Shown one piece after another: positions 30,401-53,957 of a stretch of 64,000 nt of DNA. The notes under the pieces are model-generated. The model saw nothing but the letters and a program-made list of their open reading frames with translations. It ran no database searches and had not been told where the DNA came from. Source of the DNA: an uncultured SAR86 cluster bacterium (GTDB taxonomy: Bacteria > Pseudomonadota > Gammaproteobacteria > Magnimaribacterales > Magnimaribacteraceae); assembly GCA_902594545.1 (NCBI GenBank), contig CACJMO010000001.1:21112-85111 (forward strand), written 5' to 3'. Positions within the stretch are counted from its first letter, which is position 1. Each line of letters begins with the position of its first letter. The translations under genes were made by a program, and so were the position numbers.

Positions 30401-32265
30401 GTAATATTGCCAGATTCATCAATAGAGAATTTATCGCTACCCTCTCCACTTATTGAATAAGTTACTTCTTGATTCTCAGGATCGGAGATAGTTACTCCTA
30501 CTAAAACAGACCCTACAGATAGGTCTTCTGCATAAGAGTCCTGAATTTCTGTACTTACTGATGGAGCTTCATTGATATCTCTAACCGAGATATTCACAGG
30601 TATTACCACTTCTTCGTCTTCCCTTTGGACTATAAGGCTTAATGAGAAGTTAGTTTTATCTTCATAGTTTGCATTTCCTATGAAGATTAAAGTTCTAGAA
30701 GATGTATCAAATAAAAATGAATCTTTATCATCTCCGTCAATAGTAACTACAACTTCTACGTCATCGTCTTTATTGGTAATAAGGCTTGTTAAATTTATAT
30801 CTGTCTCATTTTCATTTAATTGTATATTTTCATTGCTTAGCAAAGCATCAAAGGGAGCTTCTTCAACGACGGTTTCGGTTGTTTCTACAGCCGCATTATC
30901 TTCAATAGAGGTCTCAGAAGCTTCTTCTGTTTCTTCAGCAGTCTCCTCAACTTCATCAGAGGTTGTATCAATATCTATTTCTGTTTCCACAACATCATCA
31001 GACGTAGAAAGTTCTGAAGGAGCTATATCTGAAGAATTATCTGATACACCAGAAGAATCTAAGGCACTTTCATCTACATCAGGTTGAGGGTCATCATCTA
31101 CTGCTGTAGTTGTATCTGGTTGATCGGAAGTTTGAGCTTTTGACCCAGAGTCAGATGAAATATCTGCTTGTGCAGTGTCATTATCTGTTCTTGATTCTGT
31201 TTCAGTATCAGTATCAGAAGAATTTTCTTGTTGGATTTCATTATTCTGGTCTTGAATATCAGAATTATTATTTTCTTCGGTGGTACTTTCTTCCTGCTCC
31301 ACCGAAACATTCTCATCTAGGGTTGCTTGATCAGGTTCTTGACTTTGCTCCTCAGAATTTTCTTGTTGGATTTCATTATTCTGGCCTTGATTATCAGAAG
31401 TATTGTTTTCTTCGGTGGTACTTTCTTCCTGCTCCTCCGAGGTTTTCTCATCTGGGGTAGATTGTTCAGATTCTTGACTTTGCTCCTCATTAGACTCTTC
31501 TTCCGTAGCTTCCTCTTCGGTTGATTCCTCTTCGGTTGATTCCTCTTCGGTAGACTCCTCTTCGGTAGACTCCTCTTCGGTAGATTCCTCTTCTGAATTT
31601 TCATCGGTTGAATCGCCATCCGACTCTTCATCATTCTCTCTTGCCTCTAGACCTTTCTGAAGTTCTGCAAGAAAAGTTTCACTCAGTTGTTCTGGATCTC
31701 CTACTTCAGCAGTAGGATCTTCAACTGTAACGATAAATCCATTTTCAGTCAGACTGGTTGCAGCTGAACTATTCTGATTCGGGGTCATAGTTAATTCATC
31801 ACCATAAACAAAAGCAGCTGAGGTTGATAAGCCTTGTGTTTGGACAATGGTTATTCCCCCTCTTATTCCAACAGTTGCTGAGTTAGTTCTAATTAATGCA
31901 GGCCTTTTCTTGGTAACCTTCCCACCAACCAACCTTAGCAAGCCCCTGGAAGATACCTCTAAAGAACCCTCTGCGGTCTCAGGGTTGTAAATAAATTTAT
32001 CTAGAGTTACTGAAGAATTAGGACCAATAGAGAAAGATGTGCCGTCTATAAGCAGAAGAGCAGCTCGACCTATAGCATCTGTTTCTAAAGTATGATTTTG
32101 AATTATCTTATATCCAGCCTGTATAAGCCTTCTTTCCTCTGCTAGGGTTAAATCTGTTGTATTTTTATTTACAGCAGAGGCAACACCTATCTCTCCTTCT
32201 GTGAAAACTGCATTAACGTTCATCAATAAGATGAATAATATGGTTTTCTTCAAAACTTTAATCAT
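24445..32265 (-). CDS. Giant (2606 aa) secreted protein: FecR domain, acidic repeat linker, about 12 cadherin-like domains, C-terminal TbpB-like beta-barrel
   Basis: Signal peptide; FecR pattern (TDAIGRAALLLIDGTSFSIGPNS...TNSATVGIRG); repeated LD[YF]E...TVTATDG cadherin motifs; C-terminal IPTSGSA..SG and GALFG...ESGG motifs typical of TbpB/HpuA-like barrels. Confidence 0.8.
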   Translation of the reverse strand: MIKVLKKTILFILLMNVNAVFTEGEIGVASAVNKNTTDLTLAEERRLIQAGYKIIQNHTLETDAIGRAALLLIDGTSFSIGPNSSVTLDKFIYNPETAEGSLEVSSRGLLRLVGGKVTKKRPALIRTNSATVGIRGGITIVQTQGLSTSAAFVYGDELTMTPNQNSSAATSLTENGFIVTVEDPTAEVGDPEQLSETFLAELQKGLEARENDEESDGDSTDENSEEESTEEESTEEESTEEESTEEESTEEEATEEESNEEQSQESEQSTPDEKTSEEQEESTTEENNTSDNQGQNNEIQQENSEEQSQEPDQATLDENVSVEQEESTTEENNNSDIQDQNNEIQQENSSDTDTETESRTDNDTAQADISSDSGSKAQTSDQPDTTTAVDDDPQPDVDESALDSSGVSDNSSDIAPSELSTSDDVVETEIDIDTTSDEVEETAEETEEASETSIEDNAAVETTETVVEEAPFDALLSNENIQLNENETDINLTSLITNKDDDVEVVVTIDGDDKDSFLFDTSSRTLIFIGNANYEDKTNFSLSLIVQREDEEVVIPVNISVRDINEAPSVSTEIQDSYAEDLSVGSVLVGVTISDPENQEVTYSISGEGSDKFSIDESGNITLAESFDFEAKASYTLTVTATDGELSSETEVLINVGDINEAPSLSSTLALTSFSEDSAIGTIIATSSASDPESNAITYSLIGTGSEYFYVDEKGNVTLKNNLDFETDNNYEITLVASDGELTSSSVITFDISDVDEAPSLSSSLKSESFEESIAVGTALATISSIDPESQTITYSLSGTDSENFEIDSEGNITSKVAFDYETQKSYTFNITASDGTNSTTSPLTITLSDVNESPDVKISLQGSEFAENITTGSTIATVAYTDPESDTLTYTLSGTGSDQFSVDDQGVITLKTGLDYETKTSYELTLTSSDGTNSIQTQISFSVTDISELSLSLDATEVTLAENISTGTSVAIASSSDAAGEVTYSITDLDDATLESNIFSIDSQGKITLESALDFESKDSYTLAVSASDGKETKTKQLTITVSDINLSYSGTLESQNQNEDISIGTTIVTSSASNSEGTVSYSLTDDDSKFSIDSSTGEVTLSSALDYETKTSHSFTVTATDGVTTSSETFTLNVGDAGLSLSGALAQSSQQENISTGTSILTSSTSESKGTVSYSITDADNKFSINSSTGEVTLANALDYETKTSHSFTVTATDGVTTSSETFTLNVGDAGLTFTGALAQSSQQENISTGTSILTSSTSESKGIVSYSLTDSNNKFSIDSATGEVTLASALDYESNTSYSFTVTATDGVTTTSETFTLNVTDVDLMVTSSLASENQAETISTGTSILTISTSNAEGTLSYSITDADNKFAINNSTGEVTLANALDYETKTSHSFTVTVTDGTTSSSETFTLNVTDVDLAFSASLASSSQLETISTGTTIVTSSALDSEGTVSYSITDADNKFAINSSTGEVTLANALDYETKTSHSFTVTATDGVTTTSQTFTLTVDNEVINTLAVSLANSGAALAESSSSGTSVGSSSINNPDSDSVSYTLSGTGSSNFAVDSNGNITTNATLDFETAKSYALTLTASGGGTTTTDNFTVNVGNIEELESAVLRYSADYNSVSRSGFSATATRGPSGSSLAAYTLEQVGTTNSTDITSVDDTANNYVPVEINSGTQLNWRYYFPTDISGNGFYSFAPNSEVVDGKYYSPLGTAVTTTIANADFLTAGRLYSAEYWFMTTDKAEAQVSYTSSSGDIGDLLITNHYQGAYNYETFWTQANSAATNPLTASYQHELRNYTFSDLSGYGVVIDGANDAYSRTDDTNYAGNRSAALSFIQQENKVLVFTGENSNWTNKNNSIVTFLETIMSGSDFSWSAGGMPSVDFTYSGFRFQSSASSRGDSQLNCPSGFDTYCFGSFAFFPASMTDSEYKSDVFIWLTVNQQMDSSLDTQIINYANTTFGSPTTSTYNLYEDQVTLAGEVYKDANFLSFTDSNKRVIAMAVIPLENFAASGSSNDYFIPNFIPKTLWSYGDVGHDYCLGIGNNASACNGSYDNYYDFSSTALSSSMIDTSRFNGSDNELPEGQSMWWQVLNPSGIGVGLWAQISLKDSYDGASGSTTRDDQESLLNVVISNVDYRKNDTTRYSAGDTGLGMDGYHYWSYQGATNADNDGLGINYGTSPIECATSNDSGCFWGDSSNQPGGAMITSSDPYKSGNMTLGVNYNSNNDTFSTGSFNISAVVQDVKPSSSSYADYASLSNFRSSDFYSSSATGYSGIFSGILEFDVSGTGNSQLSSIRSSSTLATFTFDTTNDDVQVVAPMTISAAPSNNYTSNWSTVDTGSMTLKFGDTTNDEAKSAYISSEVFGAEIQDDGAQIDGTSGGSNNLAGVMVSYNTLDKEDSDLFHTGGNDSMPNTEYSTWGFWAMSAADITPNSGDQNASVHLGTWVGGELVDQNEIPTSGSASMSGAAAVNVAYRHNQTGTNYDVHKYTTTADVAASFNWGASGYSGTLDFTNFDDKNPIVANAGFASFSVAITGTNNTYTGTSTDSLDNSWLGGAAVAGALFGDSSPTESGGRVNVNLYKSGDTGTAGANDFYMAEGIYLICASGGC
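27440..30850 (-). repeat. Array of about 12 cadherin-like repeats (about 93-100 aa); the central copies have a 279-bp nucleotide period
   Basis: 12 LD[YF]E-type motifs counted; the segment GCATCCCCAACATTTAGCGTGAAGGTCTCAGATGAAGTCGT recurs at 28571 and 28850. Array boundaries are approximate. Confidence 0.85.
31219..31488 (-). repeat. Tandem duplication of a 135-bp (45-aa) acidic segment
   Basis: EEQSQE...NNEIQQENS occurs twice back to back, with visible nucleotide similarity. Confidence 0.88.
31489..31593 (-). repeat. 15-bp coding tandem repeat x7 (EEEST)n
   Basis: TCCTCTTCGGTAGAC-like unit repeated; encodes EEEST x5, EEEAT, EEESN. Confidence 0.92.
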
Positions 32266-33608
32266 GAGTTAGAGTTGTTAAACAAACATACATAGCTAAA
32301 ATCTGCAGTGATCTGTAAGTTCGATTTAGCAAAAATTTCTATTGAACTGTTATTGTCATTTTTAGAGAGTCGATAGCTTTCAAAAAAACAGTTGTCAGAA
32401 GAACTTTTGGAGAATTCAAGCTTCATGGAATTGAGCTTATCTTTTCTTTCTCCAAAAACGGGTAATGGAGAAAAATGAGATTTATTTACATGTGAAAGCG
32501 AGGCCTTAAAGCCCCATCCTTTTCCTAGTACTGAAGTAATATTCAAACCAAATGAATTTGACTGATATGTTTCATAGGAAGCTTTTGCATTGTATTTAGA
32601 GTACTCATATTCTATTTCGGTCAAAATATTTGAATCCGATATATAGGAATTAGAAAGAAAAAGACCATTCATTAAACCACTCTTAAGATCATTAATCAGA
32701 AACTTCCTCTGATCATGGAATCCTCCTATAGCGAAATAAGCACTATCTGAAAGTGCTCCTGTAAATTTTAGGTCATACTTTTGTGAGTTAAGAAGTGATT
32801 TATCTGCTAACAACACAATAAATCCTGTAATTGTCGCATCAAGAGAGGGACGACTGAATATAGAAGTAGGATTTCCTTCAAGATTAAATGTTCTTGTAGC
32901 TGAAGTAACAATTGAGGAGGTGTCAAACTGACTAAAAGTTTCCAGTCTTTGATCAGTAAGAGCAATAAGGTAGTTAACCTTATCCCCTCGAGGGTGGTTG
33001 AGATCCTGATTAAGTGTATAGGTATACCTAATATTTCTTGTAAGATCATTTTTAGGCTTCGAACTATCGGGAACTTCTAAGGCAAAGCCTGCAATTTCAA
33101 TGATATCATCATCTATACCGGAATTTGCGTTACTTGATCTAGTAAGTCCCATACTGAGTATGTGCTGATGTACAAAGTCTCTCTCTGCCTCAACTATCGA
33201 GTCTAAAAAGGAATCTACTTTTTTGAGCACTTCTTCAGGAGCATCGTATTTTTTGACACTATTAAGATAAAGCTTAGCTGAAGGATAAGCATTAAGACGA
33301 AAATACAAAACCCCTAACTCAAGTCGTATTCTTGGAAGATCCGGTTCGTAAATTAGCATTTGCTCGAAAACACTAATAGCAGCCTCTAAATCTCCTAAGA
33401 GAATAGAAAGATTTGCATATTTAAATAGAAAATCTAGATTGGTGGGATCTTCAATCAGCTCAGCAAAGATTTTTTCTCTTTGTAAATTTGTCTCTTCAAT
33501 TAATTTTGGATCTGTAATGGCTGGAGTTACATTTACCGCAACTACAGTTTGAGAGTAAAAGACCCAAACTACAAATAATATAAAAAACTTGCCCTTAAAG
33601 AGTTTCAC
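32262..33608 (-). CDS. TPR + outer-membrane beta-barrel protein (Slam / DUF560 / T11SS-like)
   Basis: Signal peptide; TPR segment EPDLPRIRLELGVLYF; SSNANSG at the barrel start; alternating beta-strands; ATGA overlap with the giant gene. Confidence 0.68.
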   Translation of the reverse strand: MKLFKGKFFILFVVWVFYSQTVVAVNVTPAITDPKLIEETNLQREKIFAELIEDPTNLDFLFKYANLSILLGDLEAAISVFEQMLIYEPDLPRIRLELGVLYFRLNAYPSAKLYLNSVKKYDAPEEVLKKVDSFLDSIVEAERDFVHQHILSMGLTRSSNANSGIDDDIIEIAGFALEVPDSSKPKNDLTRNIRYTYTLNQDLNHPRGDKVNYLIALTDQRLETFSQFDTSSIVTSATRTFNLEGNPTSIFSRPSLDATITGFIVLLADKSLLNSQKYDLKFTGALSDSAYFAIGGFHDQRKFLINDLKSGLMNGLFLSNSYISDSNILTEIEYEYSKYNAKASYETYQSNSFGLNITSVLGKGWGFKASLSHVNKSHFSPLPVFGERKDKLNSMKLEFSKSSSDNCFFESYRLSKNDNNSSIEIFAKSNLQITADFSYVCLFNNSNS

Positions 33609-33698
33609 GCTATTTTTCTAAAGGTTTACCAAAAAAACTGACGAATTATCAAATATTTAATGAAGTAAAGAAAGATAATTCTCCTATTTTCTGATACC

Positions 33699-34352
33699 AT
33701 GTCAGAAAATTTTAAAAAAATGTCAAAAACAAGACAAAGAACTGAAAATAAACTGCTAAAAGCAACAGAAGAATTACTTGATCTTAATGGCTACAAAGAA
33801 CTTGATGTAAAAACCATCACCAACCTCGCAAGGGTTTCTTACGGCACTTTTTACAATTACTTTTCTTCAATTGAAGAGATTCATGAAAGGATTGTTAAAG
33901 AGAAGGTATCTGAGGTGGCCACCCAATTAAGAAACTCTGCACAAGGTATACAAAGTCCACTTAATAGAGCTTTTTTTGGTTGGTACATGTCTCTAAAATT
34001 ATTTTCAAATGACCCTTCTGCGGGCTGGATCATTGAAAGACCTGAAGTAATAAATGAAGTGTGGAAGAATACAGCTGAAGAAATGCAAGAAGGCTTGGTA
34101 ATTGAAGCAATTAAAGGAGGAGAGATTCCCGGTTCGGAGATCGATACATTACTACATTTTAGGAAAGCAAGAGATACAATGAGAGCGGGTTATGTAACCG
34201 TGCTTGAAAAGGTAATAAATGGGCAAACTGCCGAGAAAGCGTTTTATGATTATATGACTACGTTGAATTTATTCAATTTAGAGCCAAAAAAAGTCGAAGC
34301 CATTCTGGATGAAGTTTTAAATGAATCTGCAAAGCTGACTCGGAGCATATAA
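33699..34352 (+). CDS. TetR/AcrR family transcriptional regulator
   Basis: N-terminal HTH GYKELDVKTITNLARVSYGTFYNYF. Confidence 0.88.
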   Translation: MSENFKKMSKTRQRTENKLLKATEELLDLNGYKELDVKTITNLARVSYGTFYNYFSSIEEIHERIVKEKVSEVATQLRNSAQGIQSPLNRAFFGWYMSLKLFSNDPSAGWIIERPEVINEVWKNTAEEMQEGLVIEAIKGGEIPGSEIDTLLHFRKARDTMRAGYVTVLEKVINGQTAEKAFYDYMTTLNLFNLEPKKVEAILDEVLNESAKLTRSI

Positions 34353-34354
34353 CT

Positions 34355-36532
34355 ATGGCTAAATACGGAAAAAATCTATTACTGCCCTTCGCGGTGCTGT
34401 TATCTTTCTTTCCATTATTGGACCCATTAGAAATATTTAGTGATCTTAAGATTACGTCTTTTGATACATTTCAGACTATTTTTCCAAGACCCAAACTTGA
34501 GGAAGATCCCGTTATTATTGTGGATATTGATGATGAGTCTTTGCAAAAAATAGGACAATGGCCTTGGTCAAGAGATGCTCTTGCTAGCCTTACTGATCAA
34601 ACCCAATTGGCTGCGGCTACGGCTTTTGACATAGTATTTGCAGAACCGGATAGAACGGGATCGAGTCAACTACAGCAAATTTATTCCAATGATGAAGCAT
34701 TGGTTGAAATACTTTCTAGGACTATTGATCACGATGATTTATTTGCTCAGTCCATTGCCAACCACGGCACTGTTGTTTTAGGACTGGCTCCAAATAATAA
34801 AACCGAGAGTCAAAACTATCTAGGTAAGCATGGCATGGTCATTCAAGGAGATGATCCAAAACTTTTCGTCCAACCTTATACCGGTATGCAGAATAATCTA
34901 GATAAACTTGAAACTGAGAGCGCAGGTTTGGGCAGTATGAGCATAGGGAATGATGATGTAATTGTAAGAACCCTTCCTAGTTTTGAAAATATAAATGGAT
35001 CCTTAGTGCCTTCCCTTCCATTAGAAATTGTTAGGGTAGCAATTGGAGCATCAACTTATCAAGTGAAGTCTTCAAATGCATCAAGTGAAGAAGCATTTGG
35101 AGAAAATACCGGTATTAATCACGTCAAACTTGGGTCATTGATCATGCCTACAAATGCAGATGGGAGTTTCTGGTTATATCCAACAAAGAGCAATAACCTT
35201 TCTGTGTTGCCTGCATGGCAGGTTATAGAAGGTGTTGTAGATCCTTACTTTTTTGAAGGAAAGGTAGTAATAGTTGGCACGAGTGCTTCTGGATTGTTTG
35301 ACCTTAGATCTAATGCCTTGGAAAAGAATATCCCTGGAGTTTCAATTATTGCTCAGTTTGTTCAACAAATCTTTTCAAACTCCTTCCTAAAGAGACCGGA
35401 TTGGCTTTTGGGACTTGAGTTTCTGATGGGTTTGCTCTTTTCAGTAGTGATAACACTCACCATACAAAAACAAGGACCGATAGGTGGGCTTGTTGCCTTT
35501 GGCATTGGCAATGGATCCATTGTTTATGGAAGTTACTACATTTTCATCAATCATCAATTCTTGGTTGATCCTATCTCCCCAATGGTTATTTGTCTTCTGG
35601 CCTATTTGATCATTACCTTCTTTAATTTTCTATTTACAGAAATGGAAAGAAGTAAAGTTAGAAATGCTTTCTCGCAATACCTAAGCCCTGTCATGGTAGA
35701 AAAACTAGCACAATCAAGTGAGTCTTTGGTTTTAGGTGGAGAGAGAAAAGAAATGACTGTTTTATTTTCCGACATTCGAGGATTTACTGCTATTTCTGAG
35801 AACTATAAAGATAATCCAGAGGGTCTAACTGATCTTATTAATCAATTACTGTCTACGCTAAGTAACGAGATACTAAAAACTGAGGGAACCATCGATAAAT
35901 ATATGGGAGATTGCATCATGGCCTTTTGGAATGCACCCATTGATCAAGAAAATCACAGGGAAAGGGCAATAGAGGCTGCGTTTAATATGCAAATTGCATT
36001 AAGAGAATTAAACGAAGAATTAGGAAAATATGACCAAGATGAAATGGCTATTGGAATAGGAATCAATACTGGAGAATGTATAGTTGGCAACATGGGATCA
36101 GAACAAAGGTTTGATTACACGGTTTTAGGTGATTCGGTTAATTTAGCTTCAAGACTCGAAGGTCAGTCGAATAACTATGGATTTCCTATGATACTGGGAC
36201 AATCATCTGTTGAAGGCTTAGATTCAAATAGAGTGATTGAGCTCGATCTAATCTCTGTAAAAGGTAAGAAAGAGCCTGAAAGGATCTATACCGTCCTTGG
36301 AGAAGACATAGAAATAGGCAATGAAAAAGTATTTTTTGAGGAGCATGCTAAATTTATAGAAATGTATAGAGGCCAAGATTGGAGCCAAGCTAGTATGCAT
36401 ATAGAAAAATACGCAAATAATGTACCCTCCTTTAACCTATACTACGAACTAATTTCAAATAGGATTGAAGAATATATTGAAAATCCACCTCCAAGTGATT
36501 GGGAAGGTGTTTTCGTAGCTAAAACAAAATAG
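34355..36532 (+). CDS. CHASE2-domain class III adenylate/guanylate cyclase
   Basis: CHASE2 motifs IVDIDDESL...GQWPWSR and FDIVFAEPD; 3 TM helices; catalytic FSDIRGFT, DKYMGD, DYTVLGDSVNLASRLEG. Lys and Thr at the specificity positions suggest ATP. Confidence 0.93.
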   Translation: MAKYGKNLLLPFAVLLSFFPLLDPLEIFSDLKITSFDTFQTIFPRPKLEEDPVIIVDIDDESLQKIGQWPWSRDALASLTDQTQLAAATAFDIVFAEPDRTGSSQLQQIYSNDEALVEILSRTIDHDDLFAQSIANHGTVVLGLAPNNKTESQNYLGKHGMVIQGDDPKLFVQPYTGMQNNLDKLETESAGLGSMSIGNDDVIVRTLPSFENINGSLVPSLPLEIVRVAIGASTYQVKSSNASSEEAFGENTGINHVKLGSLIMPTNADGSFWLYPTKSNNLSVLPAWQVIEGVVDPYFFEGKVVIVGTSASGLFDLRSNALEKNIPGVSIIAQFVQQIFSNSFLKRPDWLLGLEFLMGLLFSVVITLTIQKQGPIGGLVAFGIGNGSIVYGSYYIFINHQFLVDPISPMVICLLAYLIITFFNFLFTEMERSKVRNAFSQYLSPVMVEKLAQSSESLVLGGERKEMTVLFSDIRGFTAISENYKDNPEGLTDLINQLLSTLSNEILKTEGTIDKYMGDCIMAFWNAPIDQENHRERAIEAAFNMQIALRELNEELGKYDQDEMAIGIGINTGECIVGNMGSEQRFDYTVLGDSVNLASRLEGQSNNYGFPMILGQSSVEGLDSNRVIELDLISVKGKKEPERIYTVLGEDIEIGNEKVFFEEHAKFIEMYRGQDWSQASMHIEKYANNVPSFNLYYELISNRIEEYIENPPPSDWEGVFVAKTK

Positions 36533-45518: not shown

Positions 45519-45664
45519 GATTGAGTTAGATTAAATTTAAATTAGATATAAAAAATTGAAAATGTTTATAGTTAAGTTTTTTGCTGGCTAAGCTTAACAA
45601 ATCTATGTACTTTTTTAAGTGCAAACTATTACAAATTACTTGATTACCCTATAAATCACTAAAA

Positions 45665-45693
45665 TTTACGTTTTTGAAGAAGTTTGTTAACAT
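45665..45693 (+). promoter_or_regulatory. Putative sigma70 promoter for the riboswitch-peptide unit
   Basis: TTTACG (45665-70), 17-bp spacer, TAACAT (45688-93) with extended -10 TG; predicted start about 45700, directly at aptamer 1. Confidence 0.55.
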
Positions 45694-45700
45694 TAAGGTT

Positions 45701-45760
45701 CGTTCATTCACTCTAAATGTAGCAGTGAACGGAAGTAGTCAATTGTGACGAAGGAACGCA
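45701..45760 (+). ncRNA. glnA-motif (glutamine-I) riboswitch aptamer, copy 1
   Basis: P1 CGTTC/GAACG, P2 TTCACT..AGTGAA, E-loop strands CGGAAGTA and GAAG, P3 GTCA/TGAC, 3' CA. Confidence 0.82.
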
Positions 45761-45764
45761 TCTT

Positions 45765-45813
45765 CGTTCATCCCGAAAGGGACGGAAGTAGGTGATAATA
45801 CCGAAGGAACGCA
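45765..45813 (+). ncRNA. glnA-motif (glutamine-I) riboswitch aptamer, copy 2
   Basis: P1 CGTTC/GAACG, P2 TCCC-GAAA-GGGA, CGGAAGTA, P3 GGT..ACC, GAAG, 3' CA. Same core as copy 1 with different stems. Confidence 0.85.
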
Positions 45814-45833
45814 TCTTTTTAACAGGAGATGTT

Positions 45834-45974
45834 ATGACTAAATATGAAGAAGCGCGAATAATCAATCGTGCAGTCAAAAAATCCCTTAAGAGACAACTGG
45901 GAGAACCGGTTTATATTCGCAGAAGATCTTCTGATCTACCTGCTTATGTGACTGACAATCCCTTTTATCCTTAA
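45834..45974 (+). CDS. 46-aa basic small protein downstream of the tandem glutamine riboswitches
   Basis: AGGAG SD (45824-28), ATG 45834, MTKYEEARIINRAVKKSLKRQLGEPVYIRRRSSDLPAYVTDNPFYP*, followed by a terminator. Confidence 0.8.
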   Translation: MTKYEEARIINRAVKKSLKRQLGEPVYIRRRSSDLPAYVTDNPFYP

Positions 45975-45978
45975 GGAC

Positions 45979-46006
45979 TTAGGGGGCTTAGGCCCCCTAA
46001 ATTTTT
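45979..46006 (+). terminator. Intrinsic terminator
   Basis: TTAGGGGGC-TTAG-GCCCCCTAA perfect 9-bp stem followed by ATTTTT. Confidence 0.85.
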
Positions 46007-46030
46007 AACCTTACAACAGATAGAATCAAA

Positions 46031-47049: not shown

Positions 47050-47127
<78 letters not shown>

Positions 47128-47225: not shown

Positions 47226-49406
47226 TTAAAAATCATATTTCAATCCCATGCTCATATTTCTTCCTGGTTCCATGAAGAGATCTAGCTCGCCATCAGTAGA
47301 GCTTTTACCTTGGACAGAAGCCCAATTCCAATAGCTTTCATCCGTGAGATTTCTTATGGCAAACCTTACTTTTAGGTTTTGAGATATCTGGTAACTTCCA
47401 TAAAGGTCATACGTAGTCAGACCAGACAATGTGAGCAATGGATTACATCCACTTCTACCACAACTGGGGGGCAAGTTGTCATGGCTGCCTGCTGTAAAAT
47501 TAGCATATCCACTTAGATTTAATTTTCCACTATCTGAGTTCCAAACCAATCCAAGAATGGCCTCTTCGGGATCTATTGATACTAACTGTTCTCCGTTCTT
47601 TGTACCGTCCGGAATACTAAATCCAAATGATGCTTGAAGGTTTTCAGTGACATCCGAATTCATTTCAAACTCAACTCCTTTTATCGCAACTTCATCGAGA
47701 TTGCCATATTCATAAAGAGTAATGCCTTGCTGATTTCTCCCTTTTATATAAGTATCTATGAAATTTTCGTACTCATTATCGTAAAAGGACAAAGTCCAAG
47801 AGATATTATCAGTTGTGCCTTTAAACCCGAACTCATATCCTTCACTCTCTTCAGGCTGAAGACCAGGACTCGTTCCTACAGCATAACGAAATGCCAAATT
47901 GGTGAAACTTAAATTAGCACTTTGGAAATCTGGCGCTCTAAACCCTTCAGCATACTGGGCATAAAAAGAAACTTGATCAGAAAGATCTCTTAAAAAACCA
48001 AATTTCATTGATACTTCACTATCATCAATAAAATAAAGCTGATTAGTTGACTGAGCATTAGCATAAAATAAATCATCTGGTACCGGGGTTAACTCATAAC
48101 CATCATATCTCGCTCCAAATACCAACGTTGTTTTATCATTAAGCTCAAATCGGTCATTAAAAAAGAAGCTTTGCCTCTCAATCTCTGTATCGGGAATAGT
48201 CTTATTAGGATAGTATTCCCCTCCGAGGAAAGTATTGATAGCTCCGGTCATTAAATTAGTTTCATATCTAATTCTAGGTCTTTGAACATCTATGTTTTCA
48301 ATCTCTATTCCATAAACAATATTATGCAATCTGCCATTATTATTTATTGTTTTAAAGAAATCTGCTGAGAAGCCATCAATCTCTTGATTGAATTGGTAAT
48401 CTCTATAAGCATTAACCATCGAAGGTGGTCCTTGTCCAAAAATTTGTTTTGATCTCGTAGTAATTTGCTTTTGATCTGTCTCTTGGGCATAGAACCTTAT
48501 TGCTCCATTATCAAATAAAGAGGTTTCATTACTAAAGTCTAGAGACAAGGTTCCTCTATCTCGATTGCCGTCGTCTACTCCAATGACATTGGACGTGCTA
48601 GTAACTTGGGGGAAATAGCTCATGCCTGCCTGTGAATTAAAAATATAATCACCTTCAAATTCTTGAGAATCAAGAACAAGAGTTATATCTACAGACTCGC
48701 TTAGGCTAAATTTAAATTTAGCCAGAACGCTCAGTTGTTCGCCATCAAATGGATCCAATTCAAGGGTAGCATCATCATGAAGCTCAAGTTGACTGAGTTC
48801 TCTGGAAGTTACTTGAATCAAACTTTCTATGGACTCTCCAACTCTTGCAGCCATAAATCCAACTTTTGTTTGCTCATTATCTTCGTCATAAGAAGTATTC
48901 AAGGAAAAGTAATTTTCTCCGAAATCTGCTAAATCACTTGGGTCTTTAGTTATATATGAGACAGCTCCAGCTAATCCGTCAGATCCATATAAAGCTGAAC
49001 TTGGCCCTTTCAGTATCTCTACTCTCTTAAGTAAATCAACATCTACCACATCTCTACCATATCCTGTGTAAGCTTCAGCAACTCTTATACCATCAATGAG
49101 TATATTCACTCTTTTTCCTCCAAGGCCTCTGATAGAAATACCATCGTTATAGGCCCTGCCAGAAACATTACGTTTTGAAACTGACACTCCAATGGTTTTA
49201 TCGAGCATGTCAGAAAGGTCACTGACCATTCGTGTCTCCAAATTTTCCAGGGATATAGAATCTACACTTCCCACCACTTCTTGAAGTGGCACTGGATATT
49301 TAGAAGAAATTACGACCACTTCCTGTACTTCGTCTTCTCCATAAATATTCCCTAGGAAAAGGAATAAAACTAATGAGGCAATTATAAAAGGGTTACTTGA
49401 TTTCAT
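47226..49406 (-). CDS. TonB-dependent heme/hemoglobin receptor
   Basis: TonB box EVVVIS, plug motifs IRGLGG and RVEILKGPSSALYGS, FRAP motif, C-terminal GRN...LKYDF; divergent from the heme ABC genes. Confidence 0.88.
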   Translation of the reverse strand: MKSSNPFIIASLVLFLFLGNIYGEDEVQEVVVISSKYPVPLQEVVGSVDSISLENLETRMVSDLSDMLDKTIGVSVSKRNVSGRAYNDGISIRGLGGKRVNILIDGIRVAEAYTGYGRDVVDVDLLKRVEILKGPSSALYGSDGLAGAVSYITKDPSDLADFGENYFSLNTSYDEDNEQTKVGFMAARVGESIESLIQVTSRELSQLELHDDATLELDPFDGEQLSVLAKFKFSLSESVDITLVLDSQEFEGDYIFNSQAGMSYFPQVTSTSNVIGVDDGNRDRGTLSLDFSNETSLFDNGAIRFYAQETDQKQITTRSKQIFGQGPPSMVNAYRDYQFNQEIDGFSADFFKTINNNGRLHNIVYGIEIENIDVQRPRIRYETNLMTGAINTFLGGEYYPNKTIPDTEIERQSFFFNDRFELNDKTTLVFGARYDGYELTPVPDDLFYANAQSTNQLYFIDDSEVSMKFGFLRDLSDQVSFYAQYAEGFRAPDFQSANLSFTNLAFRYAVGTSPGLQPEESEGYEFGFKGTTDNISWTLSFYDNEYENFIDTYIKGRNQQGITLYEYGNLDEVAIKGVEFEMNSDVTENLQASFGFSIPDGTKNGEQLVSIDPEEAILGLVWNSDSGKLNLSGYANFTAGSHDNLPPSCGRSGCNPLLTLSGLTTYDLYGSYQISQNLKVRFAIRNLTDESYWNWASVQGKSSTDGELDLFMEPGRNMSMGLKYDF

Positions 49407-49426
49407 AAGAATGTACCTTGTTTAAT

Positions 49427-49449
49427 GAGAATGAGAATGATTATCATTT
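49427..49449. promoter_or_regulatory. Fur box between the divergent heme-uptake genes
   Basis: GAGAATGAGAATGATTATC (49427-45) matches 16/19 of GATAATGATAATCATTATC, within an extended hexamer array. Confidence 0.8.
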
Positions 49450-49481
49450 ACTTTGATATGAAAATCAATACAATCTTCATA

Positions 49482-50336
49482 ATGATGCGCTATATTTTTT
49501 TTATTACTTGCTTTGCTTTATCTCAATTCTTCTTAGCTAATTGCGAGGAATCCCAAGACTCTTCAAAAATAGTCATCGCAGGTGGTTCTCTGACTGAAAT
49601 TGTCTATTTTTTAGATTATTCCGATAAAATTGCTGGGATAGATGTTACATCTAACTACCCCTCAGATACTGCTAACTTGCCATCCATAGGTTATGTCAGG
49701 GCCCTATCTACAGAAGGAATTTTATCTCTTAAACCCACACTTATTCTGGGGGAAGATGATATGGGCCCTCCCCTCGTTATAGATCAATTAAAACTCACTG
49801 GGGTAGATCTCAGAATAATAGATGAGGGTCATTCTGCTAATGGAATACTCCAAAAGATCAATTGTATTTCATCCGTCTTAGGGGTTAATACAGATTTATC
49901 ATCATCGAAAATTGAGTTGCTCGAGCAAGATATTAATAAGTTGAATATATTGGCTATGGATAATCAAAACTCGAAAATTAAAGTTATGCTTATCCTTAAT
50001 ATGCAAGGTACCTCTCCCATTGTTGCAGGTAAAGGAACATCGGGTGACGGTTTTATAAAAATGACTGGAGCAGTGAATGTTGCTAATAACTTTGAAGGAT
50101 GGAAGCCAATAAGCAGTGAATCAATAATTTCCTACAATCCCGATTTTATTATTATTACCAATAGAGGAATGGGGTCTTTCCCTGATACAAAAAGCCTATC
50201 AGAAACTACAGCACTTAGATTTACCGATGCAGCCAAAAAGCAAAATATATTATCTGAGGATGGTATGGCAATGTTGGGTTTTGGAGTAAGGACTATAGGC
50301 GCAGCATTGGAATTTGCTAAAACCTTTCAACAATAA
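49482..50336 (+). CDS. hmuT: Heme ABC transporter substrate-binding protein
   Basis: GGSLTEIVY, DVTSNYP, IGYVRALSTEG (heme-ligand Tyr); start moved to ATG 49482 because 49425 lies in the Fur box. Confidence 0.87.
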   Translation: MMRYIFFITCFALSQFFLANCEESQDSSKIVIAGGSLTEIVYFLDYSDKIAGIDVTSNYPSDTANLPSIGYVRALSTEGILSLKPTLILGEDDMGPPLVIDQLKLTGVDLRIIDEGHSANGILQKINCISSVLGVNTDLSSSKIELLEQDINKLNILAMDNQNSKIKVMLILNMQGTSPIVAGKGTSGDGFIKMTGAVNVANNFEGWKPISSESIISYNPDFIIITNRGMGSFPDTKSLSETTALRFTDAAKKQNILSEDGMAMLGFGVRTIGAALEFAKTFQQ

Positions 50337-51376
50337 TGGTTAGATCGTTACTTAAGGATTCTGCCATCCTTCAATATACAAATCCTTTGCAAATTAGCAT
50401 TTTGTTTATATTTGTATTGTCCTTAATTGTGATTTTCTTTTCTTCTATCTCATTAGGCAGTTTTTCTTTTGCCTTTCAAGAATTATTCAATGGAGGATCT
50501 GAATCATTAGATAGTATCGTTTTATTTGAAATAAGAATACCCAGAGTATTGTTGGCAGCTTTTGTTGGAGCAAGTCTTGGTCTATCTGGAGCGTCTTTAC
50601 AGGGTTTATTTAGAAATCCTCTAGCCGATCCCGGGTTAATTGGTGTCTCAGCTGGAGCGGCATTAGGGGCATCGTTGATTATCGTATTGGGTTCAGATTT
50701 GATCCCAGACTTTATATTTGGCACTTTAGTTTTACCCTTGTCTGCGATTCTAGGTGCCTCCTTGGTGATAAGTCTCTTGTATATCTTTACGCAAGGGTTT
50801 GGCTATCAAGGCATCACTTATATGTTGCTAGTTGGTATAGCGGTGAATGCATTTGCATCTGTAGGTATTGGAATATTGACATATATCAGTACTGATTCAG
50901 AGCTTAGAGGTCTAACATTTTGGACTATGGGAAGTTTTGGTGGCTCTTCATGGCAATTGATCATTCCTGCTTTGCTAATTATATCTATGGCTATGTTTTG
51001 GATGATTCCTTCTGCTAGAAAACTAGACCTTTTGCAATTGGGAGAACCTGAAGCATATAGATTGGGAGTGGATGTAAAAAAACTTAAATTTAAAGTCATA
51101 ATTTCTTCTGCTATAACCGTAGGAATTAGCGTTTCTCTATCAGGTATGATTGGTTTTGTAGGGTTAGTAGTTCCTCACTTGGTAAGATTATTGGGAGGAG
51201 TAAATCATAGTTATCTATTGCCCGGATCAGCTCTGTTAGGTGCATCTTTAATGATGGCAGCTGACCTACTATCCAGAATTCTTATCCAACCTGCTGAGCT
51301 ACCCGTAGGTCTCATAACGAGTGCAATAGGTGCCCCTTTCTTTCTATGGTTAATTTTTAGAATTAGAAAAGCATGA
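50336..51376 (+). CDS. hmuU: Heme ABC transporter permease (FecCD family)
   Basis: IRIPR, QGLFRNPLADPGLIGVS, GMIGFVGLVVPH motifs. Confidence 0.9.
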   Translation: MVRSLLKDSAILQYTNPLQISILFIFVLSLIVIFFSSISLGSFSFAFQELFNGGSESLDSIVLFEIRIPRVLLAAFVGASLGLSGASLQGLFRNPLADPGLIGVSAGAALGASLIIVLGSDLIPDFIFGTLVLPLSAILGASLVISLLYIFTQGFGYQGITYMLLVGIAVNAFASVGIGILTYISTDSELRGLTFWTMGSFGGSSWQLIIPALLIISMAMFWMIPSARKLDLLQLGEPEAYRLGVDVKKLKFKVIISSAITVGISVSLSGMIGFVGLVVPHLVRLLGGVNHSYLLPGSALLGASLMMAADLLSRILIQPAELPVGLITSAIGAPFFLWLIFRIRKA

Positions 51377-52146
51377 GCGTAGACATTAAAAACCTGTCTT
51401 GGGAAGTGGACTCCAAGAAAATTTTAGATGATATTTCTCTTTCCATCTCATCGGGAGAAATAATTACAATCCTGGGTCCAAACGGTGCGGGTAAGTCTAG
51501 TTTTTTAAAAATCATATCTGGTGATTTAAAATGTACAGAAGGTCAAATCTACTTCGATCAATCCAATCTAAATGATATTTCAATTCAAGACCGGTCTTTC
51601 ATTAGAAGCGTAATGTCACAATCCCAAGATGTCGTGTATGACTTTTCAACTAGAGAGATAATTGAAATGGGTTGGCTAGACAGAGGCATATCAAATTATT
51701 CCGAAGATTTTAAGAAAGCAATTGATCAAATATCGGAAGAATGTTCTGTTAAGAATCTTTTAGAACAAAGTTTTAATACCCTATCGGGTGGAGAAAAAAG
51801 AAGAGTTCATTTTGCAAGGACACTTATTCAGTTATGGAGACCTTCAGGATCTGACGACCCTAGATACATGTTTCTAGATGAACCAACCGCTAACCTAGAT
51901 ATTCTGCACGAACAAAAAATGATGAAGCTTATTCAAAAAAAAAGAGATGAGGGCTTAGGAATTCTTCTCATCCTCCATGATCTGAACTTAGCTGCAAAAT
52001 ATTCAGATCAGATTGCTTTATTTAATGATGGAAAACTTGTAGACAAAGGCCTGCCAAAGACCGTCCTGAAAGAAGATACTCTTAGCGCCGTATATGGACT
52101 TAAGATGCATGTTGAAAAAAACCCTTTCAGGATTAACTATTACTAA
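51373..52146 (+). CDS. hmuV: Heme ABC transporter ATP-binding protein
   Basis: GPNGAGKS, LSGGE..RVHFAR, LDEPT, LHDLNLA. Confidence 0.9.
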   Translation: MSVDIKNLSWEVDSKKILDDISLSISSGEIITILGPNGAGKSSFLKIISGDLKCTEGQIYFDQSNLNDISIQDRSFIRSVMSQSQDVVYDFSTREIIEMGWLDRGISNYSEDFKKAIDQISEECSVKNLLEQSFNTLSGGEKRRVHFARTLIQLWRPSGSDDPRYMFLDEPTANLDILHEQKMMKLIQKKRDEGLGILLILHDLNLAAKYSDQIALFNDGKLVDKGLPKTVLKEDTLSAVYGLKMHVEKNPFRINYY

Positions 52147-52149
52147 ATT

Positions 52150-52881
52150 ATGAATAAGAGACAAGAAGAATACGAAAAGGATGCGATAAATCTTTTACGG
52201 AATAGCAGTGAAGGAGTTTTATCGACTATTTCAGTTAGAAATGAAGGCTATCCATTTGGTAGTTTTGTTACGTATATTTCAGATGTGGATAGAAGCGTCG
52301 TGATCTATGCAAGCAATATTGCGCAACACACAATAAACCTTAAGGAAAATTCTAAGTCATGTCTCACTCTTTTTAAAATTGATGATGATCTTGATAAGCA
52401 AAATTCTTCAAGGATGACACTCCTTGGAGATTTGCAATCTTTACCCGAAAAAGAGATTGATGAGACCCGAATAAGATTTGAAGAGTTTTTACCAGAAAGT
52501 AAGAAATATGCTTCCATGCATGATTTTAATTTCTATAGACTCCACATAGATCAAATAAGATGGATTGGTGGATTCGGAAAAATAGCATGGTTAGACAATA
52601 AAGACTGGAAACAATTTAAACCAAAATGGACGAGTAATCAGATATCCATAATGAATCATATGAATCAAGATCATGCCAAAAATATTTCTGCTTCTCTCAA
52701 TGCTCAGCATGGTATTCAAGATGCAGAAGCTAAAATGTTTGCATTATCTATTGATGGTTACTTCGTGAAATCTAAAGACAAAATTTATTTCATCTCTTTT
52801 GAAAAGGTTTGTAAGAATGCCAAAGAGTACAAAGATATTTTGGTCGAACAAGCGAATCAACACAGGTCTTATGAGTTATAA
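52150..52881 (+). CDS. HugZ/HutZ-like heme-utilisation protein (split barrel + DUF2470)
   Basis: GYPFGS, IGGFGK and C-terminal IMNHMNQDH motifs; operon context. Confidence 0.82.
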   Translation: MNKRQEEYEKDAINLLRNSSEGVLSTISVRNEGYPFGSFVTYISDVDRSVVIYASNIAQHTINLKENSKSCLTLFKIDDDLDKQNSSRMTLLGDLQSLPEKEIDETRIRFEEFLPESKKYASMHDFNFYRLHIDQIRWIGGFGKIAWLDNKDWKQFKPKWTSNQISIMNHMNQDHAKNISASLNAQHGIQDAEAKMFALSIDGYFVKSKDKIYFISFEKVCKNAKEYKDILVEQANQHRSYEL

Positions 52882-52883
52882 AA

Positions 52884-53957
52884 ATGTTTGATAAAAAAAG
52901 CTTAGAAAGCATAGAGCTTATTATTGATAACCACAACGAAGTGAATGAAGATGCTCTGAATTTGGTGTCTTCATACTACTTAGATATAACTGATGTCCGA
53001 GGATCGAAAATTATGGAGATATCTAATGAAGAGATATCAATGATGATTCGAGTTTCAGACAAAAAGATCTATAGAACTATTAAATTTCCAAATACATTTA
53101 AAAGCTCAGATGAAGTAGTTACATTCTTCTATTTGTGCTTAGCCGAAGCTAGAAAAAAAGCTCCAGAGGACTATCCTAAAACTCGTATCGAAATACAAAT
53201 TGAAAAAACACTCAATTTAAATACCTACATAACAAAAGTAAAAAATAAAAAAGAAATTTCATCTAATATCATTGAGATAACATTTAATGGAGGGTTAGAG
53301 TCTCTACCGGACTTAAAAAATGACGCTTTTATGTATTTTATAATCCATAAAAATATAGACCATAGATATCCAGAAAATTTTGTTATGCAAAACTTTAGAG
53401 AACTCAATGCTAAAAAAGACAATCCCTATTCAGCGGCTTATTACACAATAAGAGCCTATAGGGAAAATGAAATAGATGTCTGGTTTGTACTTCATGATCA
53501 TCCTGGGCCACTAGCTAACTGGGCTGAAAAAGTTACTGAAGATTCCGAAGTGGCCATATGGGGGCCAAGATCAACCTTCACTCCTCCAGAAGGAACTGAT
53601 AACTTTTTATTTATAGCAGATGAAACTGCCCAGCCAGCAGTCCTTGCGTCGATAGACAACTTAGAGGATAAATTTAATTTTAAGTGTCTTTTTGAAACTC
53701 AAGACCAGTCTTCCCAATTTGAGTGCCATGATCCAAATAATTGTATCGAGTGGATATACAGAAATGATGAACCAGCAGGTAAAGGTTCGGAATTATCAAA
53801 AAGAATCGAAGAATTAGAAATGGAAACAGATAACCTTTATGTTTTTGGAGCTGGAGAAGCTAGACAAATTTCTTCAATAAGAAAAATACTCAAACAAAAG
53901 TTCAGTCTTAAACCAGATCAAATGAGTTTCACGGGCTACTGGAAAAGAACAGACTAG
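52884..53957 (+). CDS. Siderophore-interacting protein (FAD ferric reductase) with N-terminal DUF2470-like extension
   Basis: YTIR, FVLH...GP...WA, GPR, ADETA, AGE and FTGYWK SIP motifs. Confidence 0.82.
   Translation: MFDKKSLESIELIIDNHNEVNEDALNLVSSYYLDITDVRGSKIMEISNEEISMMIRVSDKKIYRTIKFPNTFKSSDEVVTFFYLCLAEARKKAPEDYPKTRIEIQIEKTLNLNTYITKVKNKKEISSNIIEITFNGGLESLPDLKNDAFMYFIIHKNIDHRYPENFVMQNFRELNAKKDNPYSAAYYTIRAYRENEIDVWFVLHDHPGPLANWAEKVTEDSEVAIWGPRSTFTPPEGTDNFLFIADETAQPAVLASIDNLEDKFNFKCLFETQDQSSQFECHDPNNCIEWIYRNDEPAGKGSELSKRIEELEMETDNLYVFGAGEARQISSIRKILKQKFSLKPDQMSFTGYWKRTD

Follow-up and report, generated by a model that had tools for sequence, protein, structure and literature searches.

A tandem glutamine-I riboswitch linked to a small basic protein family in SAR86-type bacteria and large marine phages

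What does a heterotrophic marine bacterium control with a glutamine-sensing RNA when the open reading frame (ORF) behind that RNA encodes a protein of only 46 residues? The question is raised by a 64,000-nucleotide stretch of contig CACJMO010000001.1 from an uncultured SAR86 cluster bacterium (hereafter the window), in which two glutamine-I riboswitch aptamers, a Shine-Dalgarno (SD) sequence, a small ORF and a terminator-like hairpin form a compact cassette (Table 1). What is new is a family of small proteins in a glutamine circuit of the gifB kind, common to SAR86 and large marine phages. Tentatively, we read the whole as a glutamine-ON tandem cassette of SAR86-type bacteria and large marine phages, the protein of which may dampen type II glutamine synthetase (GS).

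A first-pass annotation of the window had assigned the RNA to the glnA motif (glutamine-I), and the covariance model agrees: RF01739 matched twice, along its full length (model positions 1-53 of 53) and over the gathering score of 35, with E-values of 1.8e-9 for aptamer 1 and 2e-11 for aptamer 2. These are the sole RF01739 matches in the 1.34-Mb, 71% complete assembly, and the Downstream-peptide model (RF01704, glutamine-II), proposed alongside it, gave no match at its gathering score in the window. As described at first pass, the two tandem aptamers share an identical core, CGTTCA-P2-CGGAAGTA-P3-GAAGGAACGC, while their P2 and P3 stems differ in sequence yet still pair; the three-way junction is complete in both copies, with P1 (CGUUC/GAACG) and the E-loop (CGGAAGUA) followed by C. 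The ligand contacts given for the glutamine-I aptamer in the cited part of PMC6698751 (C1:G59, G22 and C58) map, by our own transfer of the numbering, into the invariant core of both copies. The SD sequence, the 46-aa ORF and the terminator are also all present 3' of the aptamers at fixed coordinates, and the cassette does fill the largest gap of the window (45519-46030), gaps being taken between ORFs of at least 100 aa. These parts, their order and their linkage form the first, directly read step of the mechanism that we propose.

Table 1. Features of the cassette and its surroundings in the window
Feature	Position	Strand	Basis or detail
Likely sigma-70 promoter, extended -10	45665..45693	+	TTTACG(45665)-17-TAACAT(45688), TG at 45685-45686
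Glutamine-I aptamer 1	45699..45762	+	RF01739, 55.4 bits
Glutamine-I aptamer 2	45763..45815	+	RF01739, 62.5 bits
Expression platform hairpin, predicted (C and tail after P1 of aptamer 2 against the Shine-Dalgarno sequence)	45811..45832	+	Folding, compensatory variants
Shine-Dalgarno sequence AGGAGA	45824-45829	+	Sequence
46-aa basic microprotein ORF	45834..45974	+	ATG 45834, TAA 45972-45974
Terminator-like hairpin (9 bp, 45979-46000) and T run	45979..46006	+	-17.9 kcal/mol
tRNA-Ile(GAU)	47050..47127	-	Cassette lies within a variable gene island 3' of the tRNA

The promoter is the weakest part of the cassette. The element is plausible, with a likely start predicted near 45700, and a TG-N-TAA(T/C/A)AT element lies 6-9 nt 5' of the aptamer in most of the same-genus leaders listed; however, TTTACG-17-TAACAT with its TG matches only 8 of 12 consensus positions and is unlisted by the promoter scan, the threshold of which is 9. 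On the other side of the ORF, the terminator-like hairpin faces a convergent gene for a zinc-binding dehydrogenase, and the ORFs of homologs carry GC-rich hairpins of varied sequence on their 3' side.

The small ORF behaves as a protein-coding gene. Across 23 distinct bacterial coding sequences (CDS) its length is fixed, variable columns number 16, 22 and 35 at codon positions 1, 2 and 3, dN/dS amounts to 0.29 for the whole CDS but to 0.09 for residues 35-46, and the shifted frames contain 2-8 stops; by these sequence measures, the ORF is a real gene under purifying selection. It might be asked whether the RNA itself is the effector and the ORF a non-functional leader peptide, given that mean identity is higher in the leader than in the CDS (0.90 against 0.83). 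We find this highly improbable: the C-terminal motif tolerates synonymous change at the dN/dS just given, its N, P and Y are invariant in 167 sequences (a set selected on that motif), and there is no downstream gene to attenuate, since the terminator and the convergent gene come next.

Contrary to its first description as an orphan, the microprotein has many homologs: a profile search returned 160 clusters at E 0.01 or better, an index-free search with a narrower alignment 17 representatives at 50% identity, and a search for longer forms a single 102-aa match. The family pattern comprises an M-T-K-Y start, an amphipathic basic helix (I10, R12, V14, L18), a variable linker and the C-terminus LPxY[IV]TDNP[FYW]YP; R12 is kept in 92% of the 167 sequences, and the family has a median isoelectric point (pI) of 10.07 and a net charge of +7. 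In the protein of the window (P0001) a helix is predicted at residues 3-21, followed by the variable linker and a C-terminal LPxY[IV]TDNPFYP, and the structure model shows one helix (pTM 0.38). No Pfam, NCBIfam or PHROG family matched P0001, the best match among solved structures (PDB) had an E-value of 1.4 and gave no relative, and the ESM Atlas returned nothing but unnamed clusters at 0.9 or more. The group g14/L279 consists of distant relatives (hhalign 95%; 18-24 bits, where shuffles reach at most 11). Homology to the small proteins ending in FFPYYL of genera g12, g17 and g20 was considered but could not be shown (hhalign 0.3%, with scores within the range of 1480 shuffles). In three alleles (L251:1077-1190, P0037 and P0038) the frame shifts after residue 25 and the C-terminal motif is lost; these may be sequencing errors; L253 and L254 (118 aa, no riboswitch) and the weak, stop-containing G003, G226 and G250 were left out.

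How glutamine might control this gene is suggested by folding. When the leader is folded without constraints, the nucleotides on the 3' side of P1 in aptamer 2 (the C and the tail) form pairs with the SD sequence at a probability of 0.98, and fixing aptamer 2 in its bound form abolishes this anti-SD helix. The probability that the SD sequence is unpaired is 0.02 in the free leader, about 0.14 with aptamer 2 fixed as bound and about 0.38 with both aptamers fixed, values in which part of the opening arises by construction, because bound-state folding sets C as unpaired, and in which the SD sequence stays partly paired even when bound. With aptamer 1 fixed alone the SD sequence remains closed, and fixing both has a greater effect than fixing aptamer 2. 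A cross-aptamer hairpin, considered as a device for cooperativity, was discarded at a helix probability of 0.01. The cost of opening the SD sequence falls by more than 1 kcal in 39/42 leaders of the family, 9/10 of the FFPYYL type, 9/9 of the DUF4177-like type and 5/5 of the g14 type, and elsewhere in 10/22 YRG, 2/12 GSII and 0/6 TorF-porin leaders; in this model, the effect is class-specific.

Comparative evidence points the same way. Among 49 phage loci chosen by protein alone, the anti-SD hairpin folds in all 20 distinct platforms, and it carries compensatory variants: in L405 a double change has turned a C-G pair into U-A, and 8 loci have a matched A/U insertion. These compensatory changes in the hairpin make a translational ON switch like that of gifB likely; for gifB, an identical pairing of C to the ribosome-binding site (RBS), opened by glutamine, has been postulated (PMC6212724, section 20). 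Computationally, then, the hairpin, the class-specific opening and the compensatory changes together describe an expression platform overlapping the RBS. Hence, as the second step, we consider it very probable that without glutamine the tail of aptamer 2 would pair with the SD sequence, and that bound glutamine would engage C within the aptamer and free the ribosome site, as proposed for gifB. Transcription of the cassette is only hinted at. Contigs span it in 7/7 RNA runs, which were selected for containing it, and DNA carry-over is possible because the runs were preselected and X10 spans the flanks too; the contigs of three runs from three studies end within the terminator or at it (45983, 45987 and 46002), and those of four other RNA runs and of one run of unlabelled kind extend beyond it.

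The search of related genomes advised at first pass found the microprotein in 8 of the 47 genomes of the host family. RF01739 exceeds its cut-off in seven of them, each time in tandem and always in the genus of the window; in the eighth carrier (G007) the contig ends before the leader, and weaker matches below the cut-off number seven in the genus and one in g5. The cassette sits among shuffled accessory genes 3' of tRNA-Ile, often adjoining the same zinc-binding dehydrogenase gene, and no 3' duplicate of the tRNA (an att scar) was found within the window. Two single-contig genomes are informative: G023 carries the cassette amid the same neighbouring genes and G040 shows none, which argues that the cassette is both real and accessory. 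There is likewise no sign of contamination, and the proposed heterotrophic, streamlined gammaproteobacterial host holds, given that the protein of the same-genus genome G042 is identical to P0017, for which NCBI gives the name 'SAR86 cluster bacterium'. Among 400 other genomes sampled from the phylum the microprotein cassette was not found, and all 22 metagenome loci with full upstream DNA carry two aptamers. In one metagenome contig (L229:1-1140), jumbo-phage DNA (89.6% to G670) passes into the SAR86 ilvC-pssA region, and the junction falls exactly on the aptamer; this contig is likely an assembly chimera formed via the shared RNA, and possibly a recombinant.

The cassette is also carried by phages, and the sequences at hand place most of the family's diversity in marine phages. 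A DNA pattern of aptamer tail and SD sequence was found in 51 IMG/VR contigs, encoding 43 family members, 3 distant relatives and 5 YRG-type peptides, and a protein-first scan recovered the family in 49 contigs of T4-like and jumbo phages; the two sets overlap. A riboswitch precedes the gene at 48/48 protein-selected loci with enough upstream DNA (44 with two aptamers, 4 with one). The 23-nt P2 of aptamer 1 is letter-identical in many phage cassettes, and the whole of aptamer 1 is identical to that of several. Genomes of about 310-460 kb are implied by CheckV completeness for five records, and the tail tube of one carrier is closest to those of PA5oct-like jumbo phages (47-50%). The best signs as to the phages' host come from G666, in which 192 nt of the cassette are 87.5% identical to the window and a ferritin-like gene is 69.5% identical. 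In addition to this ferritin-like protein, G666 (L374-L379) encodes bS21, ClpX/ClpP/ClpA/ClpS-like proteins, a Suf cluster and a Gcw_chp porin, and in the T4-like phages L264, L297, L303 and L312 a conserved ORF of about 71 aa (starting MSN; L297 without a PHROG match) adjoins the cassette. A comparison with 50,697 isolate phage records brought no credible match for either P0001 or the cassette DNA.

In phages the cassette is likely a late transcript, as judged from its leaders. An ATAAAT element, the core of the T4-type late promoter in the consensus quoted in PMC9004378, occurs no more than 45 nt before the first aptamer at 47/48 protein-selected and 45/50 pattern-selected phage loci, against 160/3190 background windows (5%) and 6/28 bacterial leaders. 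This raises the alternative that behind the same glutamine-ON switch the protein serves a late phage function, such as timing of lysis or assembly or a nitrogen-dependent takeover of the host machinery, and that the bacterial copy was captured from a phage and retained for some related advantage. The late-type element itself speaks for it, as do the neighbouring genes, which often encode the major head, sheath or tube and also include those for the ssDNA-binding protein and ribonucleotide reductase, and a midpoint-rooted protein tree in which 17 genus-level bacterial sequences nest, with modest support, within phage diversity. Yet monophyly of all 20 bacterial rows was not rejected (p-AU 0.225), selection on the bacterial copy is purifying and a promoter of its own precedes it, and, unlike a structural gene, the cassette shifts among unrelated positions and head types. 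A late phage function is thus a serious candidate that we nevertheless hold to be unlikely. Exchange of the cassette between SAR86 and phages is likely on the same sequence comparisons.

What, then, could a glutamine-induced protein do in this host? The GS of the host is a 323-aa GlnII-like (type II) enzyme, encoded at G000 C1:208371-209342 in a glnA-ntrB-ntrC cluster (G000:C1:208371-211855, L327), and a GlnII-like GS is present in 228/266 genomes of the order. GlnE was found in none of the 47 family genomes, and type I GlnA in none of 5 near-complete genomes at the cut-off. With NtrBC present and GlnE absent, GS synthesis is therefore controlled, and no known fast off-switch is encoded. A 464-aa protein matching PF00120 was rejected as a GS, because its score falls far short of the GlnA cut-off and its gene adjoins a deacetylase-like one; it is taken as gamma-glutamyl-amine ligase-like. 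By analogy, the microprotein may be the nitrogen regulator that the first-pass annotation supposed. We propose an inhibitor of GS because a basic two-motif protein induced by glutamine would, on the analogy of IF7/IF17, fit the gap left by the missing off-switch, and we favour GS as target because the known target of such an ON switch is a GS inhibitor and because a similar hairpin precedes gltB in genus g9. Moreover, the host GS has a pI of 4.5 and a net charge of -30, which places it in the most acidic 3% of 795 long ORFs, and a similar charge pattern of basic inhibitor and acidic GS is described in the cited part of PMC6316151 for IF7/IF17. As a third step, negative feedback of the protein on nitrogen assimilation is somewhat favoured; the fourth, that the target would be the GlnII-type synthetase that lacks a GlnE off-switch, is rather doubtful. 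For a phage, the proposed benefit would be that late expression spares ATP and glutamate for virions when glutamine is ample. In its fullest form, the proposal would be a mobile cassette of SAR86 and at least three large-phage lineages that is expressed late and encodes the first protein inhibitor of type II GS, an independent invention of the IF17 circuit by which phages throttle host nitrogen assimilation; as a joint claim this is doubtful to the point of being improbable.

Several observations weigh against GS inhibition, or against parts of it, in addition to the constraints on the folding, the uncertain transcription and the late-type phage element given above. The host already senses glutamine at the protein level through GlnD-PII-NtrBC. 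None of glnA, amtB and glnK is linked to the cassette, and no copy was seen in 39/47 family genomes, the single-contig G040 included, so that it is dispensable. IF7 and IF17 act on type I dodecamers, which are another enzyme class. Homology to IF7-like proteins, to the IF17 C-terminus or to DUF4278 was tried and dismissed (hhalign probability 0.05-0.24%; 0.05% against 8 IF7-like proteins and 0.11% against 15 IF17 C-termini, both sets being drawn from cyanobacterial loci and labelled by our motif reading). Charge complementarity is weak evidence, because many small proteins are basic. Two further candidate connections were examined and brought no support: the MTKYE start shared by the microprotein and the host GS uses different codons and is likely chance, as MTK begins 18 of 1417 ORFs, and exact matches of at least 12 nt included no complementarity of the cassette to host nitrogen genes.

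A different target within nitrogen control would be the PII/AmtB/GlnD/NtrB layer, on which the protein might act as a PII binder or as a T-loop mimic that blocks AmtB. GlnD, PII and AmtB occur in 5/5 genomes tested, and the host has two glnK-amtB pairs (two PII proteins) besides NtrBC. PirA is reportedly a small basic PII binder in cyanobacteria. The linker contains one YRG in 29/167 family members, a motif of DUF4278 and of the host PII T-loop (ELYRG), and other SAR86 genera have DUF4278-like YRG-repeat proteins under the same riboswitch. Nevertheless, the allele of the window has no YRG, the linker is the least conserved part of the protein, the family shows no profile similarity to the YRG-repeat proteins, and neither P0001 nor three YRG-bearing phage homologs matched DUF4278 (PF14105) in Pfam, so that we regard this layer as a distinctly unlikely target. 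The DUF4278-like proteins themselves, with three YRG repeats, stand behind a glutamine riboswitch at L105:444-623, L152:1274-1435, L186:822-989, L191:828-989 and L285:1314-1496, their carriers being SAR86, one Porticoccaceae record and one phage. One repeat of L105 closely resembles the PII T-loop of the host GlnK, and three T-loop mimics in one chain could plug the trimeric AmtB; if true, this would give DUF4278 a function.

Could the protein instead bind RNA or the ribosome, for instance the P2 loop of its own leader, and so tune translation to nitrogen? Its predicted helix is rich in Lys and Arg, one carrier phage also encodes bS21, and a 12-nt element of the P2 loop (window 45711-45722; L264-L314) is unchanged in most phage cassettes and in all same-genus bacterial ones. 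On the other hand, several family cassettes do without the element and the TorF leader L213 has it, while the best-conserved residues form an aromatic/proline C-terminal motif that would seem more suited to docking on a protein; binding to RNA is accordingly an alternative to which we give little credence, and dampening of GS stays our preferred proposal. The P2-loop element spans SAR86 and unrelated phage types, switches between aptamers 1 and 2, and reads AUG with UAG directly after it.

The wider use of glutamine riboswitches in the order provides a context for the cassette. The aptamer core pattern occurs in 104/266 order genomes, and its reversed control had 0 matches. Downstream genes were read at 70 loci, a sample of the pattern matches, and among those listed they encode GSII, GltB, Gcw_chp/TorF porins, a TonB-dependent receptor and a probable ATP-grasp protein, together with four kinds of small ORF by Pfam comparison: DUF4278-like YRG repeats, DUF4177-like, FFPYYL-ending, and relatives of the family described here. 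In genera g13 and g22, a GlnII-like GS stands directly behind glutamine riboswitches with a different platform. Genus g9 (L141-L151) has a single aptamer and a tail-pairing hairpin before gltB, the gene for the glutamate synthase large subunit; this tail-to-purine hairpin, similar to that of the cassette, was read from sequence alone. Genus g15 (L169, L170, L183-L185, L187, L189, L219 and L220) combines a 71-aa acidic DUF4177-like ORF with a single aptamer and the same SD hairpin, and the basic FFPYYL family of 52-54 aa has tandem aptamers and the same platform (L153, L192, L198-L201, L216-L218, L221 and L034). Among the genome records scanned, marine alphaproteobacterial ones, including one of Pelagibacteraceae and one of SAR116, have the riboswitch before amtB-like and type I glnA-like genes, labels that reflect our reading of the N-termini.

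Two other regions of the window may be mentioned. The genes between tRNA-Ile and pssA-ilvC (47226-53957) encode a TonB receptor, ABC transporters, a CREG/PNPOx-like protein and a siderophore-interacting protein; they probably form an island for the uptake of heme or iron. At 24445-36532, genes for a 2606-aa cadherin-repeat protein, a TPR protein and a CHASE2-adenylate cyclase are grouped.

These results bear on several questions beyond the locus. The glutamine-I riboswitch has been stated to be confined to cyanobacteria and to marine metagenome sequences of unknown taxonomy, and Table S2 of the same source labels 590 environmental RF01739 entries 'Hypothetical - No CDD Match' (PMC6212724); part of these taxonomically unassigned marine riboswitches can now be named, as the 104 genomes of this order indicate. 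Although phages are considered poor in riboswitches (PMC5473149), one and the same cassette stands behind a late-type promoter in some fifty marine phage contigs. The question of how SAR86 shuts off GS without GlnE is thereby raised, and no culture of the host is needed to produce and assay a protein of 46 residues and an enzyme of 323. A SAR86 isolate has also been reported (PMC11582366).

How does the cassette compare with systems already described? Tandem glnA RNAs, their occurrence in marine metagenomes, one mention in SAR86 and a few cases in phages are already known; a description of the protein family, the cassette or the late-promoter link was not found in the freely accessible literature searched. 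One sentence of PMC12379486 places RF01739 within SAR86 deletions and, like our data, sets the riboswitch in variable SAR86 DNA; the cited text mentions neither a gene behind it nor a platform or a connection to phages. Phages Melnitz (of Methylophilales) and Mosig (of Pelagibacter; PMC9004378) and two cyanophages (PMC5473149) resemble the carriers described here in being marine myophages with RF01739-type RNA, an RNA that has been suggested to tie infection to nitrogen; unlike the SAR86/phage cassette, their riboswitch is assigned to ssrA, and the cited passages describe no small-protein cassette. The glutamine-II riboswitches (RF01704) with DUF4278 ORFs of picocyanobacteria (PMC2864571; PMC6212724) are, in the cited parts, similarly glutamine-ON and precede ORFs of 17-100 aa of unknown target, whereas the SAR86 cassette differs from them in aptamer class and protein family. 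Closest is gifB/IF17 of Synechocystis (PMC6212724), which shares with the cassette the glutamine-I class, the proposed RBS platform, a small basic protein and a transcription unit of its own. In contrast to gifB/IF17, the SAR86 cassette has tandem aptamers, a heterotrophic gammaproteobacterial host with a type II GS, an accessory and phage-shared distribution, and a protein without detectable homology to IF7, IF17 or DUF4278. The RNA is hence a member of RF01739, and the protein is a member of neither the IF nor the DUF4278 family, though it may work like them.
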